Source: a virus
Lineage: Duplodnaviria > Caudoviricetes
DNA length: 62,240 nt
IMG/VR virus record: IMGVR_UViG_3300025120_000045
Span: 1-62,240 of that record
Direction: 5' to 3' (one strand)
Shown in pieces: positions 2 to 5,188 of this stretch; position 1 is the first letter of the stretch; each line of letters opens with the position of its first letter. The notes below the pieces were generated by a model that was not told the origin of the DNA, searched no databases, and was given only the letters and a program-made list of their open reading frames with translations. A program made the translations under genes and the position numbers.

Positions 2-136
2 GCTGTCACATATATGACAGATCATGTTTTAGGTAAGTCAGTTGACGCTAGAATGTCCTCATCCTGGTATGGGGCCAACTCAAGAGTGAAGGATAAAGCA
101 CTCAAGAAGGTCGTTGCATACGCAGATGCAGCCTAA
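2..136 (+). CDS. 3' end of probable DUF932-family protein (truncated by window edge)
   Basis: Frame 2 reads AVTYMTDHVLGKSVDARMSSSWYGANSRVKDKALKKVVAYADAA*, resembling the phage DUF932 C-terminus; a terminator follows. Confidence 0.55.
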   Translation, partial: AVTYMTDHVLGKSVDARMSSSWYGANSRVKDKALKKVVAYADAA

Positions 137-630
137 GGCTTTAATGGGATCCCTTCGGGGATCCTATTTTTCTTACTACAATTTTCAGATAAAGTTAACA
201 GTTGCAAGTTCCAAGGAACATGTAATCCTGTACAAGTCTTTCCATTGATAGGATAGATATGATCTACAGATAAGTTTAATTCTTTAGCTTTCTTATACAA
301 ATTAGATATCTCTTTTTTCATTTCTTTAGTTAACCATTTAGGAGTAGCTTTAGCTAGTGTTGCTCTTCTTAATGCAGTACCAGCTTTATATACTTCTGGT
401 CTTTTTTTATATGATGTAGCATTATATTTTTTTTGATTTCTTTTTCTAAAGTCAATACCACCTTCAGTATGTCTATATCTTTCATTAGACTTTAGATACT
501 CTTTCTTTTTATAATATGGTCTAGTCATCCAACATGGTTTACACATACTTTGATAACCATCTTTTCTTGTTTTATCTTTCCAATAAAAACTAAATTCTTT
601 TTCTTGTTGACATTTTGTACATTTCTTCAT
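133..630 (-). CDS. Free-standing HNH endonuclease with N-terminal Zn-finger
   Basis: N-terminal CxxC...CxxC; C-terminal VDHIYPING..GLHVPWNLQLL...NCSKKN HNH motif. Confidence 0.85.
   Translation of the reverse strand: MKKCTKCQQEKEFSFYWKDKTRKDGYQSMCKPCWMTRPYYKKKEYLKSNERYRHTEGGIDFRKRNQKKYNATSYKKRPEVYKAGTALRRATLAKATPKWLTKEMKKEISNLYKKAKELNLSVDHIYPINGKTCTGLHVPWNLQLLTLSENCSKKNRIPEGIPLKP
146..172 (+). terminator. Intrinsic terminator with UUCG tetraloop
   Basis: GGGATCCC-TTCG-GGGATCCT followed by ATTTTT, just after the stop at 136. Confidence 0.8.
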
Positions 631-678: not shown

Positions 679-697
679 TAATCGAGAGTTAATAACT

Positions 698-907
698 ATG
701 AAAGATGATATAGTAGCATTATTAAAAAAAAGAATAAGAGAATTTAAAAAGAACCATCCTGAACTGTATGAGACTGAGAGCAATGACGGAAATAAAAACG
801 GACATAAAAAAGATACTAGAGAAAGCCGGAGTAGACAAACCTCTGAAGCACTACAAAAGAGACGAGACAATTGGAGATCACAAGTATCCAAAACACAGGA
901 TAAATAG
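698..907 (+). CDS. Hypothetical protein
   Basis: ORF after a late promoter with a GAGAG RBS-like sequence; overlaps 768..1019. Confidence 0.45.
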   Translation: MKDDIVALLKKRIREFKKNHPELYETESNDGNKNGHKKDTRESRSRQTSEALQKRRDNWRSQVSKTQDK

Positions 908-1019
908 TGACTACAAATCTCCTGTAGTAGCATGGTCAAGCACTGTTGTTAAAGAACTTAATAAACAAACAGATAGAATGGAAGACCAGATAACTCTAAA
1001 GGATAAAAACGAAAAATAA
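768..1019 (+). CDS. Hypothetical protein
   Basis: 83-aa ORF with protein-like composition; overlaps the previous ORF in another frame. Confidence 0.45.
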   Translation: MRLRAMTEIKTDIKKILEKAGVDKPLKHYKRDETIGDHKYPKHRINSDYKSPVVAWSSTVVKELNKQTDRMEDQITLKDKNEK

Positions 1020-1188
1020 CATTCTAAAATAAAATATCTATTATTAACGAAATTAATCGATTTCTTAACGAGTTGTTCATCTTGTATTCAGCATTGGTAT
1101 GGTATAGTAACTAAATAAAGATGAGGATCGCGGATCAAACGATCAACCGACTCGTTTTAATGTTAACATTAACTACAAGGAGCATAAA

Positions 1189-1266
1189 ATGGCTTGGCAA
1201 AAACCAACAATTACAGAAATTTCTGTAGGTTTAGAAATTAACTCTTACGCTTGCGCTGAGAAGTAA
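1189..1266 (+). CDS. pqqA: PqqA, pyrroloquinoline quinone precursor peptide (25 aa)
   Basis: Translated by hand: MAWQKPTITEISVGLEINSYACAEK*. It has the N-terminal WxxP and the conserved G-L-E-x-x-x-Y core of PqqA; RBS AAGGAG at 1177-1182. Not in the ORF track. Confidence 0.9.
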   Translation: MAWQKPTITEISVGLEINSYACAEK

Positions 1267-1280
1267 TTTCGTCCACGATT

Positions 1281-1300
1281 AGCCCTCAACCGAGGGCTTT
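1281..1300 (+). terminator. Hairpin / probable terminator after pqqA
   Basis: AGCCCTC-AACC-GAGGGCT followed by TT; the U-tract is short. Confidence 0.6.
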
Positions 1301-1315
1301 ATCATAAATACATGT

Positions 1316-1720
1316 ATGGCATACAGTAAAGAACTTCTTGATCATTACGAGAACCCAAGAAATGTTGGATCCATGGACAAAAAGAACCCAAATGTGGGAA
1401 CTGGTCTAGTTGGTGCACCTGCATGTGGGGATGTAATGAAACTTCAAATAGAAGTTGATCCAGACACCAATGTAATAACAGATGCAAAGTTTAAAACCTT
1501 TGGATGTGGAAGTGCGATTGCAAGCTCTAGTCTCATTACAGAAATGGTCAAAGATAAAAACATTGATGATGCCGCTAAGATTGAAAACACTACAATAGCT
1601 AAGTCCTTAGCATTGCCACCAGTAAAAATACATTGCTCTGTTCTAGCAGAGGATGCTATTAAAGCTGCAGTAGAAGACTACAAAGTAAAATGTGGTTGTA
1701 AATCAACTGTTGCCAAATAG
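1316..1720 (+). CDS. iscU: Fe-S cluster scaffold IscU
   Basis: DHYENPRNVG, GAPACGDVM, FGCGSAIASSS and LPPVKIHC motifs; CATAAATA late-promoter variant at 1303-1310. Confidence 0.97.
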   Translation: MAYSKELLDHYENPRNVGSMDKKNPNVGTGLVGAPACGDVMKLQIEVDPDTNVITDAKFKTFGCGSAIASSSLITEMVKDKNIDDAAKIENTTIAKSLALPPVKIHCSVLAEDAIKAAVEDYKVKCGCKSTVAK

Positions 1721-1738
1721 CTTAATTTCAAGTATAAT
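1710..1738 (+). promoter_or_regulatory. Sigma70-type promoter
   Basis: TTGCCA-N17-TATAAT upstream of 1783. Confidence 0.65.
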
Positions 1739-1782
1739 GAATAATAAATAATATTACGACTTTTTAACAAAAGGAGGAACTT

Positions 1783-2394
1783 ATGAGAATTAAGATACCG
1801 AATTGGTTTTGGGCAATAATACTATCGTATATGGTTTATACATTAGCCTCAATAGTAGATAGAGCACCAGACATAGAAAGAGATAAACCATTATTATTTT
1901 CTGAAATAGATGATGTAAGATCCAATATTAATGTGTTTAAACAAAAACATTTAGTTGATGATGAGAGTTTGACTTGTCTAGCAAAGAATGTATATTTTGA
2001 AGCTAGAAATCAATCCATTGTTTCTCAACTAGCTGTAAGTGAAGTAGTAATGAATAGAGTGCAAGATGAGAACTTTCCAAATACTGTTTGTGGAGTAATC
2101 TATGAAGCTCAACACAGTACATGGTACAAAGAGAAAATGAATAAAGTTGTACCAATAAAAAACAGATGCCAATTTAGTTGGTACTGTGATGGAAAGCCAG
2201 ATGAGATAAATGATCAGATGGCTTGGAAAATTGCAAAAACTGTTGCCCGACAAGTATTAACTGGGTATAATGAGAATCTCACTAATGGAGCTTTATGGTA
2301 TCATGCATACTATGTTAATCCAAAGTGGGCACAAGAAAAAACAAAAACAGTAGAACACGAAGACCATATATTTTATAGAACAACAATATATTAA
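1783..2394 (+). CDS. Cell wall hydrolase, SleB/Hydrolase_2 family, with N-terminal membrane anchor
   Basis: CLAKNVYFEARNQ, VMNRV..FPNTVCGV, CQFSWYCDG, YHAYYVNPKW, HIFY motifs. Confidence 0.9.
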   Translation: MRIKIPNWFWAIILSYMVYTLASIVDRAPDIERDKPLLFSEIDDVRSNINVFKQKHLVDDESLTCLAKNVYFEARNQSIVSQLAVSEVVMNRVQDENFPNTVCGVIYEAQHSTWYKEKMNKVVPIKNRCQFSWYCDGKPDEINDQMAWKIAKTVARQVLTGYNENLTNGALWYHAYYVNPKWAQEKTKTVEHEDHIFYRTTIY

Positions 2395-2405
2395 AAGGAG
2401 ATTAT

Positions 2406-2753
2406 ATGAAAGCCGGTAAGGTGTGGGGCGAAACGAAAGCTCTGCTGCAGAACCCTGTGGTAGAGTTTCACAGAATTGAAGTTGTTAAAGGTGGAGAATG
2501 TAGTACACATAAACATAGTTATAAATGGAATGGATTCTTCATTGAAAAAGGTGAAATGGAAATACAAGTTTTTAAAAATGATTACGACCTAGTGGATAAA
2601 ACAACATTACATAAAGGAGACTTTATGGCTGTTAAACCTGGTGAGTATCATTTGTTTAGAGCAATTACAGATTGTATTGCTTTTGAAATTTATTGGCCTG
2701 AAATGCTATCCGAGGATATACAAAGGAAAAGCGTGGGCAAAGTAAATGATTAA
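2406..2753 (+). CDS. Cupin-domain protein
   Basis: HxH (CSTHKH) and VKPGEYHLF cupin motifs. Confidence 0.75.
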   Translation: MKAGKVWGETKALLQNPVVEFHRIEVVKGGECSTHKHSYKWNGFFIEKGEMEIQVFKNDYDLVDKTTLHKGDFMAVKPGEYHLFRAITDCIAFEIYWPEMLSEDIQRKSVGKVND

Positions 2754-2961
2754 TGTTATGACAACTTCAAAGTTTAGTAAGATAATTACTGAACAAGTTG
2801 AAGAAAAAGAAATTTCCTATATGGATGCCATAATGGATTACTGTTATAAAAATAATATAGAAGTTGAAAGTGCTGCTAAACTAATAAATCAAAAGATAAA
2901 AAAGATTTTAAAAGAAGAAGCAATTAAACTAAATTATATGAAAAATGAAGAACATCTATGA
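2746..2961 (+). CDS. gp33: Late-transcription coactivator gp33
   Basis: YMDAIMDYC..NNIEVE..AKLI...K..L..EA..LN; sits before gp59. Confidence 0.85.
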   Translation: MINVMTTSKFSKIITEQVEEKEISYMDAIMDYCYKNNIEVESAAKLINQKIKKILKEEAIKLNYMKNEEHL

Positions 2962-3553
2962 AGGCTTTGATGCTTATAAAGTTTACTTAGCTGTACGTAA
3001 TCATTTTACTACTACATACGATTACTTTAAGTATAGTGGTAAAGTAAATGTGAAAGAAGAAAGTTTTTTAAAACGTAGAGACAAGTTTTTCTTTAGTAAG
3101 TTAGAGCGTAAGTATAACAAACAACAATTGAGAGATTTATTTGTTAGCAACTTTGCTGATGGAGAAGACTTTTGGATTGGTAATGTGCTGACATTGAAGT
3201 CAGAAAAAGTATATATTGAATGGAAGAAGAGACAAGATAGTTTGTCATATATCTTAGAAAATGATTTTAAATTTTTAAAAGATTATTATGATGAAAGAAA
3301 TATTGACTTTAATAGTTTATTTGTAATGGAAGACGGCCATCCTATACTATTAAAATGTATATTAAGAAATGACATATATGTAGAAACTATGATAATAATA
3401 GATAGAGTTTTGAATTATTCTAGGAAATGGAGTAAGGTTTTAGACGATCCAGTATGGACAGAGTTTAAAAAGAGAATGGATAAGTATAGTCCATTTGTAG
3501 TGTTTAACGATAAAAAAGGAAAAGAAATTTTAAGAAAGGTATTTGTAAAATGA
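2945..3553 (+). CDS. gp59: Helicase loader gp59
   Basis: YKVYLA..NHF...YDYFKY.GKV......F.KRRDKFFF signature. Confidence 0.9.
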   Translation: MKNIYEGFDAYKVYLAVRNHFTTTYDYFKYSGKVNVKEESFLKRRDKFFFSKLERKYNKQQLRDLFVSNFADGEDFWIGNVLTLKSEKVYIEWKKRQDSLSYILENDFKFLKDYYDERNIDFNSLFVMEDGHPILLKCILRNDIYVETMIIIDRVLNYSRKWSKVLDDPVWTEFKKRMDKYSPFVVFNDKKGKEILRKVFVK

Positions 3554-4095
3554 TAAAAAAAGGTAACACAGTTCCCTATACAGCTTTTCATATAAGAGAA
3601 AGAGATGAATCTATTGGAGGAGATAATCCTTATAAGTGGGTAAGAAAAAGTAGTCTTGATATTTTTGAAAAAGGAAAATATATTTTATTTTCACTTCCTG
3701 GTGCTTTCACACCAACGTGTTCAACATATCAACTACCAGATTTTAATAAGTTATATTTGGAGTTTAAAGAGTTTGGAATAGATGAGATTTATTGTATATC
3801 TGTTAATGATTCTTTTGTAATGAATGCTTGGGCAAAGCACCACGACATTGGTAAAGTAAAAGTACTTCCAGATGGTAATGGAGAGTTCACAGATTCAGTT
3901 AACATGATAGTTGAAAAACAAAATCTTGGCTTTGGTAAAAGGTCATGGAGATATGCAGCTATAATAAAAGATGGTACATTTGATGAAGTGTTTGTTGAAC
4001 CTGGTATGGAAGATAATCATGGACAGGATCCATATGAAGTTTCATCACCACAAAATATATTAAAATATTTAAAAGGAGAAAGTTATGAATCTTGA
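3550..4095 (+). CDS. Peroxiredoxin (Prx5/redoxin type)
   Basis: FSLPGAFTPTCS peroxidatic motif, SVND.FVMNAW, LPDGNGEF, RSWRY. Confidence 0.92.
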   Translation: MIKKGNTVPYTAFHIRERDESIGGDNPYKWVRKSSLDIFEKGKYILFSLPGAFTPTCSTYQLPDFNKLYLEFKEFGIDEIYCISVNDSFVMNAWAKHHDIGKVKVLPDGNGEFTDSVNMIVEKQNLGFGKRSWRYAAIIKDGTFDEVFVEPGMEDNHGQDPYEVSSPQNILKYLKGESYES

Positions 4096-4222
4096 GTTAG
4101 AAAAATTTGTTGGAGAGTTACAACAACTCAGAGCAAAAGTTAAAAAACAAAAAAGAGTTATAGATGAATTAAATAATTCTGTCAATGAAGAAAAAAGATT
4201 GTTGACCGAAGATAAAAAATAA
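4085..4222 (+). CDS. Small coiled-coil hypothetical protein (45 aa)
   Basis: MNLELEKFVGELQQLRAKVKKQKRVIDELNNSVNEEKRLLTEDKK*, preceded by an AGGAG RBS. Confidence 0.6.
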   Translation: MNLELEKFVGELQQLRAKVKKQKRVIDELNNSVNEEKRLLTEDKK

Positions 4223-4236
4223 TATATAATAAATAA
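4202..4236 (+). promoter_or_regulatory. Sigma70 promoter plus late-promoter variant upstream of gp32
   Basis: TTGACC-N17-TATAAT (4202-4230) overlapping AATAAATA. Confidence 0.6.
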
Positions 4237-4291
4237 TATTATATTATGATTAAGTGGATAAAACTAATACATTGCAATACAAGGAGATACT

Positions 4292-5188
4292 ATGTCGCAA
4301 TCATTTGCTGAGCTTAAACGCTCTTCACAGTCCAGTCTGGACAAACTACTACAAGAAACAAATAAGTTAACATCTAATAGCGAGAACTCTAATAGGGATG
4401 ATAATCGTTTTTGGAAACCAGAGGTAGATAAAACTGGTAATGGCTATGCTGTTATTAGATTCTTACCTGCTCCTAAAGGAGAGGACATTCCTTGGGTTCG
4501 TATCTTTAACCATGGCTTTCAAGGTCCTGGTGGATGGTATATTGAGAACTCTCTAACTACTATGAATCAAAAAGATCCTGTTTCTGAATATAACTCTATG
4601 TTATGGAACAGAGGAGATGATGCTGGTAAAGATCAAGCTAGAAAGCAAAAGCGTAGATTACTTTATATTAGTAATATCTATGTTGTTAATGATCCAGCTC
4701 ATCCTGAGAATAATGGTCAAGTAAAGTTATTCCGTTATGGTAAAAAAATATTTGATAAACTTAACGAAGCTATGAATCCTCAATTTGAAGATGAGAAACC
4801 TATGAACCCTTTTCACTTTTGGGATGGTGCTAACTTCAAGATGAAAATAAGAAATCTTGAAGGATATAGAAACTATGATAAGAGTGAGTTTGATACTCCT
4901 AAAGCTGTACTTGAAGATGACGATAAGTTAGAACAAGTATGGGCTAGTCAGTATTCATTACAAGAGTTTATTGAGCCAAATAACTTTAAAACTTATGATG
5001 AGTTGAAAGCTAAGTTAGATAAGACTTTGGGATTATCTGGAATGGCTAATACAACTACAGCTGAACAAACTGAGTTGACTACTCCTCCAAAACCTAAGTC
5101 TGTAACTCCAGCACAAGCACCAATGATGCCTGTTCCTGATTCTGATACAGATGAAATGGATATGTTTAAGAAGTTAATCGACGATTAG
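4292..5188 (+). CDS. gp32: Single-stranded DNA-binding protein gp32
   Basis: DNRFWK..DK.GNGYAVIRFLP, HGFQGPGGWYIENS, GANFK.KIR, YDKSEF; acidic tail. Confidence 0.97.
   Translation: MSQSFAELKRSSQSSLDKLLQETNKLTSNSENSNRDDNRFWKPEVDKTGNGYAVIRFLPAPKGEDIPWVRIFNHGFQGPGGWYIENSLTTMNQKDPVSEYNSMLWNRGDDAGKDQARKQKRRLLYISNIYVVNDPAHPENNGQVKLFRYGKKIFDKLNEAMNPQFEDEKPMNPFHFWDGANFKMKIRNLEGYRNYDKSEFDTPKAVLEDDDKLEQVWASQYSLQEFIEPNNFKTYDELKAKLDKTLGLSGMANTTTAEQTELTTPPKPKSVTPAQAPMMPVPDSDTDEMDMFKKLIDD

Follow-up and report, generated by a model that had tools for sequence, protein, structure and literature searches.

The window analysed here, a 62,240-base virus record of IMG/VR (IMGVR_UViG_3300025120_000045) that is rated approximately 33% complete and has a G+C content of about 32%, contains a 25-codon open reading frame (ORF), pqqA, for the precursor peptide of the cofactor pyrroloquinoline quinone (PQQ). 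Our analyses suggested, with a probability of roughly 0.6, that this phage pqqA is a functional stand-alone auxiliary gene, which was captured from a host and would supply the PQQ precursor to the host enzymes. In the known pathway, PqqE and the chaperone PqqD cross-link a Glu and a Tyr of PqqA, PqqB and PqqC complete PQQ, and one peptide is consumed per cofactor; PqqB, PqqC, PqqD, and PqqE are reusable proteins, and PqqA is the sole component that is consumed.

The ORF starts with ATG, and its translation is MAWQKPTITEISVGLEINSYACAEK. The original prediction for this stretch, made from the letters alone, had read the ORF as PqqA and proposed a profile search, and the search now performed placed the peptide above the cut-offs of both family models, with 31.1 bits for the Pfam model PF08042 (cut-off 21.1) and 38.7 bits for the NCBIfam equivalog model TIGR02107 (cut-off 20). 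A six-frame PqqA scan of the whole window detected this single site (29.1 bits, above the cut-off), and none of 14 control genomes was positive. The peptide fitted the class of short ORFs (approximately 20–30 codons) with the leader W-x-x-P ... E, and the Glu-x3-Tyr of PqqA was present as Glu16 and Tyr20 within E-I-N-S-Y, the predicted cross-link residues. It shared with bacterial PqqA (TIGR02107/PF08042, product of the first gene of pqqABCDE) the length class and the motif W-x-x-P ... E ... G-x-E-x3-Y, and with the PqqA of low-GC marine Alphaproteobacteria 23 of 25 residues; as in these bacteria, its gene had a strong ribosome-binding site and, on the 3' side, a hairpin. In contrast to its bacterial counterparts, the window gene was viral and had no pqqB-E beside it, and its upstream region differed from that of the host in carrying a phage-specific structured leader. 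Judging from the family models and these motifs, the ORF was confirmed to be a true PqqA rather than a chance ORF.

The strong ribosome-binding site and the downstream hairpin that had been ascribed to the 25-aa ORF at the outset were both found again, and the features in and around the gene were as follows.

1100..1108, plus strand: candidate extended -10 element TGgTATAGT, about 80 nt 5' of the ATG, a putative assignment read from the sequence.

1122..1154, plus strand: predicted leader hairpin with two internal loops (..GAGGAUCGCGGAUC..GAUCAACCGACUC..), between the candidate -10 element and the ribosome-binding site.

1177..1182, plus strand: Shine-Dalgarno (SD) motif AAGGAG, 6 nt 5' of the ATG.

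1189..1266, plus strand: pqqA, encoding the 25-aa PQQ precursor peptide, identified by the family models, the six-frame scan, and the codon-position pattern.

1281..1298, plus strand: predicted hairpin 3' of pqqA, AGCCCTC-AACC-GAGGGCT and then TTTATCAT, with a G+C-rich stem of 7 bp.

1316..1720, plus strand: iscU, encoding an Fe-S cluster scaffold, the first gene 3' of pqqA (TIGR01999, 212.5 bits; cut-off 192.4).

The predicted folding energy of the hairpin at 1281–1298 was -14.5 kcal/mol (z = -3.85), a stability that no shuffle out of 200 reached; terminator, attenuator, and mRNA stabiliser are its candidate roles. A terminator scan did not call it, because its T run is weak. In an alignment of related phage loci, TATAGT, TATAAT, TATACT, TATGTT, or TATCTT stood at the column of the candidate -10 element, and a consensus promoter scan did not list the element at 1100..1108. 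One promoter-scan prediction, TTAACA-16-TAAAAT at 1163–1190, overlapped the ribosome-binding site and the ATG and was judged to be an AT-rich chance match.

The claim that this pqqA sits in a phage was substantiated by the genes for gp59, gp32, tail sheath, portal, scaffold, major capsid, baseplate, and tail-fibre proteins in the window. Since the major capsid protein was 60–64% identical to those of Pelagibacter phage Mosig, Methylophilales phage Melnitz, a Stenotrophomonas phage, and cyanomyoviruses, and in view of the structural genes, we assigned the window to a T4-like marine myovirus.

The short-ORF scan that the original prediction had proposed was carried out on the viral contigs of IMG/VR. 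A degenerate DNA pattern for W-x-K-P..E..G-x-E..Y (scan 1) returned at least 120 viral loci, and the core pattern of one peptide type alone, type B (scan 2), also returned at least 120, of which 100 were new and 20 shared with scan 1, amounting to at least 220 viral loci with short pqqA ORFs for both scans together. In scan 1, all 120 loci listed were short ORFs with a Met at most 4 codons before the Trp and a stop 22–23 codons after it, and the matches listed comprised 100 of type A (WTKPAATEMRFGFEVTMYVMNK and variants) and 20 of type B, the type of the window (..EISVGLEINSYACAEK or ..EVAVGLEINCYACAEI). Scan 2 yielded 78 distinct peptides, and every locus listed had a G+C content of 29–40%. 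A phage gene cluster was found nearby in 83 of the 120 scan-1 loci listed and a strict hallmark in 65. The viral pqqA occurred in many unrelated neighbourhoods, with recurrent neighbours including YqaJ exonuclease, Sak annealing protein, DnaB-like helicase, cell-wall hydrolase/endolysins, and M15 peptidase, and further Cpn10, holin, capsid, large terminase, RegA, Hsp20, and ribonucleotide reductase. YqaJ exonuclease adjoined pqqA in 26 and the Sak single-strand annealing protein in 20 of the 120 scan-1 loci listed, these cases being type-A loci such as L002, L006, L009, L012, L016, L027, and L104. As the YqaJ/Sak phages are unrelated to T4, pqqA appears to have entered several phage lineages. 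At one further locus (L315, 3356–3571, plus strand), a PqqA-like N-terminus MEEWNTPEVTEEAVGLEINSYACA.. was fused to a 45-residue Asp/Ser/Gly-rich tail in a 71-aa ORF; this is a read-through variant, or else the motif is put to another use here.

Among GenBank phages, tblastn with the 25-aa peptide gave no match at E <= 1, the query being too short for the database size. A copy in the cultured Methylophilales/OM43 phage Melnitz-3 (MZ577098.1, complete, 141 kb) that tblastn had failed to find was detected by the PqqA profile search, which gave no match in any of three others, the Pelagibacter phages Mosig and HTVC008M and Phage C48C1. The Melnitz-3 gene is a type-A ORF, MKWTKPVAQEMRFGFEVTMYIMTR, of 24 codons at about 76134–76208 (TIGR02107, 31.6 bits), corresponding to locus L126, 1495–1569, plus strand. 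Its neighbours are hypothetical genes and, close by on the 3' side, a tRNA-Leu gene. In GenBank, pqqA itself is unannotated, and the annotation at its position is for a hypothetical ORF (locus tag _152) of the opposite strand; the expectation that standard gene callers miss such ORFs was thus substantiated for this one case. Like the window, Melnitz-3 is a T4-like marine myovirus (Kyanoviridae), with a major capsid protein 62% identical to that of the window and a short pqqA without pqqB-E, and differs from it in the peptide type (A) and the gene neighbourhood.

With respect to the other genes of the pathway, profile searches found no pqqE, pqqD, or pqqB in the window. Neither was pqqC found in the window, with a model that was silent in all control genomes too and is uninformative alone, and a PQQ alcohol dehydrogenase was likewise not found there. 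We further used PqqB, PqqC, PqqD, and PqqE of the bacterial operon L151 as tblastn queries against the window and 220 viral loci (1.77 Mb in total, each examined over at most about 15 kb). PqqB, PqqC, and PqqD matched in none of the 220 pqqA-bearing viral loci listed and not in the window, and the sole viral PqqE match (L313) was weak (22% identity over 119 residues, E = 6e-4) and looked like a generic radical S-adenosylmethionine (SAM) protein. As a positive control, the same queries detected PqqB, PqqC, PqqD, and PqqE in 54, 53, 46, and 44 of the 120 bacterial pqqA loci listed, respectively. A host-type PQQ alcohol dehydrogenase was found in 0 of the 220 viral loci listed, and the whole genome of Melnitz-3 gave neither PqqB-E nor a PQQ dehydrogenase at E <= 0.01. 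The statement of the original prediction that the window lacks pqqB-E accordingly held, and also applied to the complete Melnitz-3 genome and, for PqqB, PqqC, and PqqD, to all of the viral loci listed. PqqA is usually encoded beside pqqB-E, an arrangement seen neither in the window nor in the 220 viral loci listed; such neighbours are usual rather than obligatory, because bacteria also have orphan pqqA copies.

In an alignment of the syntenic phage loci, the changes inside pqqA fell mostly at third codon positions, and the flanks diverged. For the 11 codons of the leader peptide, the proportions of synonymous (pS) and nonsynonymous (pN) differences among the 100 distinct type-B viral sequences listed were 0.546 and 0.259, giving a pN/pS of 0.47, as against 0.91 and 1.57 for the same stretch in the other two frames; these codons lay outside the search pattern, and one of 121 type-B copies was omitted (locus cut). 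The residues W, P, G, E, and Y were invariant in 100 of the 100 distinct sequences, the cross-link Glu and Tyr having been fixed by the type-B search pattern; the Trp and Pro of the leader were kept in all 100 and its Glu in 95. Although the scan-1 pattern fixed only E, G, E, and Y, agreement extended to the remainder of the core. None of the 121 type-B copies listed was frameshifted or start-less, apart from the one cut by the locus end. As read from these alignments, purifying selection on phage pqqA was shown.

The expression signals were likewise kept. Of the viral copies listed, 118 of the 120 of type B and all 100 of type A had an SD-like motif 4–16 nt 5' of the ATG. A hairpin with z < -2 stood right after the stop in 67 of the 120 type-B copies listed and in 59 of the 99 of type A, compared with 15 of 119 control windows placed 300 nt farther downstream. 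In L010, L271, L318, L321, and L329, hairpins occupied the same place as that at 1281–1298 with differing sequences.

To the bacterial side, the type-B core pattern matched at least 120 loci of bacterial DNA, nearly all titled Alphaproteobacteria. In the bacterial loci of 26–36% G+C, the peptide was MAWTKP[MT]ISEISVGLEINSYACAEK, with 22–23 of 25 residues identical to the window PqqA, and the titles among these low-GC loci included uncultured Alphaproteobacteria single-cell genomes, Pelagibacteraceae TMED13, and Rickettsiales MED657. The L151 operon consisted of pqqA followed by PqqB (387 bits), PqqC (340), PqqD (68), and PqqE (574), each above its cut-off, and on its 5' side lay an ABC transporter and beta-propeller proteins of a PQQ-dependent alcohol dehydrogenase system. 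Five candidate host genomes of 1.3–1.4 Mb all had pqqE (four over the cut-off, the fifth partial, covering model positions 186–357), with a PQQ alcohol dehydrogenase no more than a few kb from pqqE in all five (four over the cut-off). Furthermore, pqqA was found in 13 of 21 relatives of the candidate hosts, in 1–5 copies each, with at least one extra copy among housekeeping genes (Mfd, PpiC, endonuclease III). Relatives of the genome with L138 (G001-G015; loci L138, L156, L165, L201, and L247), streamlined low-GC Alphaproteobacteria of about 1.1–2.0 Mb, had up to five pqqA copies, many for such a genome size, and some of the copies were orphans amid housekeeping genes, each with a strong terminator hairpin.

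Among the matches listed, 105 of 119 phage peptides were nearest to bacterial copies from loci below 40% G+C, although such loci made up only 58 of 118, and 9 phage copies were identical to a bacterial copy from the Trp to the end, the median identity being 0.91. The phage IscU was 75–85% identical to the IscU of the small-genome group and 69–75% identical to that of more distant relatives, which is weakly discriminating. On this comparison, the phage peptides were shown to match host types, and capture of pqqA from a low-GC marine alphaproteobacterial host is the most likely origin. A study of marine lanthanide-dependent enzymes attributes the most expressed xoxF5 genes in the ocean to an alphaproteobacterial 'Clade X', formerly filed under Rickettsiales (PMC11996626).

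Based on these results, we propose that the T4-like phage brings a pqqA with its own candidate promoter, structured leader, strong ribosome-binding site, and downstream hairpin. The host pqqA mRNA and peptide would soon be exhausted after infection and PqqB-E would persist. The phage would supply only the consumable part, by which the precursor pool would stay filled during infection. The existing PqqD, PqqE, PqqB, and PqqC of the host would then process the phage peptide and PQQ synthesis would go on, which in turn would sustain periplasmic alcohol/methanol oxidation and the energy yield. This scheme supposes that the phage PqqA is translated, is recognized by the host PqqD/PqqE, and confers a fitness benefit.

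The proposal finds support in bacteria: as far as the accessible parts of the reports go, a methylotroph carries five pqqA copies, three of them orphan, with pqqA expression tracking PQQ synthesis (PMC9851590), and overexpression of pqqAB raised PQQ by 29% (PMC7936290). The bacterial orphan pqqA genes, as described in part of the former report, resemble the phage gene in standing alone, having their own expression signals, and adding to the precursor pool; they differ in being chromosomal and host-regulated, whereas the phage copy would use phage signals during infection.

The structured 5' leader is a new side observation. The hairpin at 1122–1154 was predicted to fold at -14.9 kcal/mol as a single sequence (z = -2.0), and in consensus folds compensatory changes were found in 8 of 12 pairs with 12 sequences and in 6 of 10 pairs with 6 sequences. 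The motif occurred once in the window, against a chance expectation of 0, and in 15 of the 121 type-B loci listed, 28–44 nt 5' of the ATG every time. These 15 loci comprised the syntenic phages and a second phage group with a different PqqA subtype. In all, the leader was noted, besides the window, in L010, L092, L248, L262, L271, L279, L289, L302, L305, L310, L318, L321, L340, L410, L414, L418, L419, L431, L440, L442, and L452. When viral contigs were scanned with the leader motif only, at least 120 matches were obtained. Of those listed, 99 were in loci of at least 42% G+C without a nearby pqqA and were rejected as chance matches to a G+C-rich pattern; the other 21 were low-GC, and 20 of these had pqqA at most 200 nt downstream, the remaining locus ending 60 nt past the motif. 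The motif was not found in the low-GC bacterial loci examined, and no Rfam family was found for the leader. The leader thus looks like a phage-specific cis element tied to pqqA, as far as covariation and distribution indicate. Two other predictions in this region were set aside: an Rfam Bacilli-1 match at 1156–1215 (18.7 bits versus 55.6, sub-threshold in a search at E <= 1) was treated as chance, and the only terminator-like prediction, on the minus strand at 1144–1126, was the leader hairpin read in reverse.

We tentatively extend the proposal to a self-contained cassette, consisting of promoter, phage-specific RNA leader, pqqA, and hairpin, that is spread among aquatic phages, with a peptide matched to the host PqqD/PqqE and a leader that would be a new cis-regulatory RNA; this wider version is possible but doubtful as a whole.

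In the window, pqqA is followed on its 3' side by iscU and the genes for a cell-wall hydrolase, a cupin, gp59, a Redoxin/AhpC-family protein, and gp32, with T4-like structural genes beyond, and is preceded by an HNH-like ORF and ORFs of no assigned family, so that virus genes lie on both sides of it. The gene iscU was immediately 3' of pqqA in six more viral loci (L337, L010, L271, L318, L321, and L310), five of which (all but L310) ran on into cupin and gp59; in L329, pqqA and iscU were adjacent but convergent. Protein identity to the window in the syntenic loci ranged from 100% (L337) down to 54–55% (hydrolase). A second IMG/VR record (L337) was 99.8% identical to the window over 689–5187 (4,499 bases, pqqA included) and differed on both flanks, the HNH-like ORF at 133–630 (minus strand) of the window and the region beyond gp32 being replaced; given the shared core and the swapped flanks, near-identical phages appear to differ by mosaic exchange.

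According to the accessible part of a study of PqqE, this enzyme carries several Fe-S clusters (PMC5715301), which makes a link between pqqA and iscU attractive; a functional link is possible, on the basis of a gene order seen in a single phage clade. At 1303–1311 on the plus strand, past the pqqA hairpin and ahead of the iscU start, lies the motif CATAAATAC, which we take to resemble the T4 late promoter consensus, and the motif, AATAAATAC in the version of the relatives, was kept before iscU in L010, L271, L318, and L321. Since there is in addition no evident SD motif before iscU, pqqA and iscU may be separate transcription units.

The window sequence was found in marine metagenomes of 14 studies, and there are DNA runs in which 96–98% of its sampled words were present. 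In a metatranscriptome, a 151-nt contig covered 1173–1323 at about 95% identity and so spanned the ORF in full together with the hairpin and the start of iscU; its 8 differences included coding ones at the variable codons 4 and 7. Another contig of the same metatranscriptome covered 1389–1539, and a contig of a second RNA library covered 1024–1173 with one difference. These contigs are a weak hint of expression, since assembled contigs give neither level nor strand, and parts of the window without such cover do not count as silence. In a marine metatranscriptome run (X20), several contigs of the conserved pqqA core matched 1213–1268 of the window at a depth of 58–104. They were rejected as RNA of this phage and taken for host or other pqqA copies, because their flanks run into host-type sequence like that of L177; this suggests a strong presence of host pqqA in that library.

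Several points weigh against the proposal that the phage gene feeds host PQQ synthesis. Translation, PqqD binding, cross-linking, and PQQ output of the phage PqqA are all deduced from sequence, and the RNA evidence consists of assembled contigs of RNA libraries, in which carried-over DNA is possible. PQQ is stable and tightly bound, and a need for new PQQ within one infection cycle is not evident without new dehydrogenase; no PQQ dehydrogenase was present in the window or in the 220 viral loci listed. The host was assigned from peptide similarity, IscU similarity, and GC content only. No strict phage hallmark cluster was found in 55 of the 120 loci listed, within the stretch examined, and host fragments may be among the IMG/VR records, although pqqB was in none of them. 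Moreover, with a record about 33% complete, pqqB-E could sit in the unseen part of this phage, and at most about 15 kb was seen per locus, so that the other viral contigs were covered in part.

The last point leads to the explanation that pqqA is not alone, the unseen two thirds of the genome having pqqB-E or another radical-SAM maturase that uses the peptide. Beyond the incompleteness of the record, it would agree with the viral pqqE and pqqD listed besides pqqA in the accessible part of a reservoir sediment study (PMC13188868) and with the radical-SAM proteins of a second viral population mentioned in part of the Lake Baikal study (10.1101/2020.04.02.019802). Nevertheless, PqqB, PqqC, and PqqD lay near none of the 220 viral pqqA copies listed and often near the bacterial ones, and the complete genome of the cultured Melnitz-3 has pqqA without pqqB-E, which leaves this explanation quite improbable. 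It is also rather unlikely that the host enzymes do make PQQ from the phage peptide while the gain lies in protection from redox or oxidative stress, with pqqA belonging to a module with iscU and peroxiredoxin. Such a module is suggested by iscU, cupin, and the Redoxin/AhpC-family protein within 3 kb of pqqA and by the order pqqA-iscU-hydrolase-cupin-gp59-redoxin-gp32, kept in related phages at 54–86% protein identity, and PQQ acts as an antioxidant in some bacteria. However, most viral pqqA copies listed are in other neighbourhoods without iscU, cupin, or redoxin, and the pqqA-E genes of the candidate hosts lie beside the PQQ alcohol dehydrogenase system, pointing to the classical cofactor role.

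That pqqA is a neutral passenger, a small promoter-gene-terminator cassette taken from hosts and not yet lost, without benefit to the phage, would suit a gene that is tiny and cheap to carry, that occurs at many different genomic places, and whose scattered orphan copies in hosts are open to repeated pick-up. We consider it distinctly improbable in view of the position kept in phages whose adjacent cell-wall hydrolase is only 54–55% identical, the synonymous-biased change and invariant key residues, and the phage-specific conserved leader that has evolved before pqqA with compensatory changes. The original prediction had also offered a decoy, in which the phage peptide occupies the host PqqD/PqqE without yielding PQQ and shuts the pathway down; competition for PqqD by a short peptide with a leader is conceivable in principle. 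Loss of the reactive residues would be expected of a decoy, whereas the cross-link Glu and Tyr and all family invariants were kept in every distinct type-B phage copy listed, and the phage copies were identical or nearly so to host copies, so that this alternative is disfavoured and appears very unlikely.

The preferred reading, in which the phage supplies the precursor alone, follows the same logic as cyanophage psbA, with which a virus brings just that component of a host energy system that turns over fast or is consumed, and the host supplies the rest; the pathway and the protein are unrelated, and the likeness is an analogy only.

Phage pqqA as a kind is already known. As reported in the available part of Coutinho et al. 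(2020; 10.1101/2020.04.02.019802 = PMC7678222), Lake Baikal phages predicted to infect methylotrophs (VP_266) encode PqqA and a viral methanol dehydrogenase, and the phage PQQ precursor was proposed there as an auxiliary gene boosting PQQ-dependent methanol oxidation. Those phages are freshwater and have the viral dehydrogenase, whereas the phage of the window is a T4-like myovirus of marine origin whose peptide is of the alphaproteobacterial type, and the window contains no dehydrogenase. The accessible part of the reservoir sediment study lists pqqA, together with pqqE and pqqD, among viral genes (PMC13188868), and a paper on mining for peptides that are made on ribosomes and modified after translation (RiPPs) mentions, in its available part, the PqqA family in a phage-defence context (PMC11118758). 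In the main text of the Melnitz paper, as far as available, PQQ appears only as a medium supplement (PMC9004378). Within a partial coverage of the literature that excluded supplements, no paper was found on pqqA in marine T4-like phages, its stand-alone state across phages, the Melnitz copy, or the leader. The novelty implied by the original prediction was therefore too high, phage PqqA being already in print, and the distribution found here is broader than reported.

If the cassette reading is true, a RiPP-type cofactor-precursor peptide would be among the more widespread auxiliary genes of phages of streamlined marine and freshwater alcohol- and methanol-oxidisers, overlooked so far because gene callers skip it; phage annotation skips or mis-calls genes of 24–26 codons, as exemplified by Melnitz-3. 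The leader would then tune the precursor output, perhaps by sensing a metabolite of the pathway or a phage protein. With Melnitz and OM43 strain H5P1, a phage and its host are available in culture for testing. In the surface ocean, expression is high for alcohol and methanol dehydrogenases that depend on PQQ and often on lanthanides. If phages of such bacteria routinely carry the precursor, viral infection would bear directly on marine C1 and alcohol oxidation, and PQQ synthesis in these cells would be limited by the supply of the precursor and not by the enzyme level.

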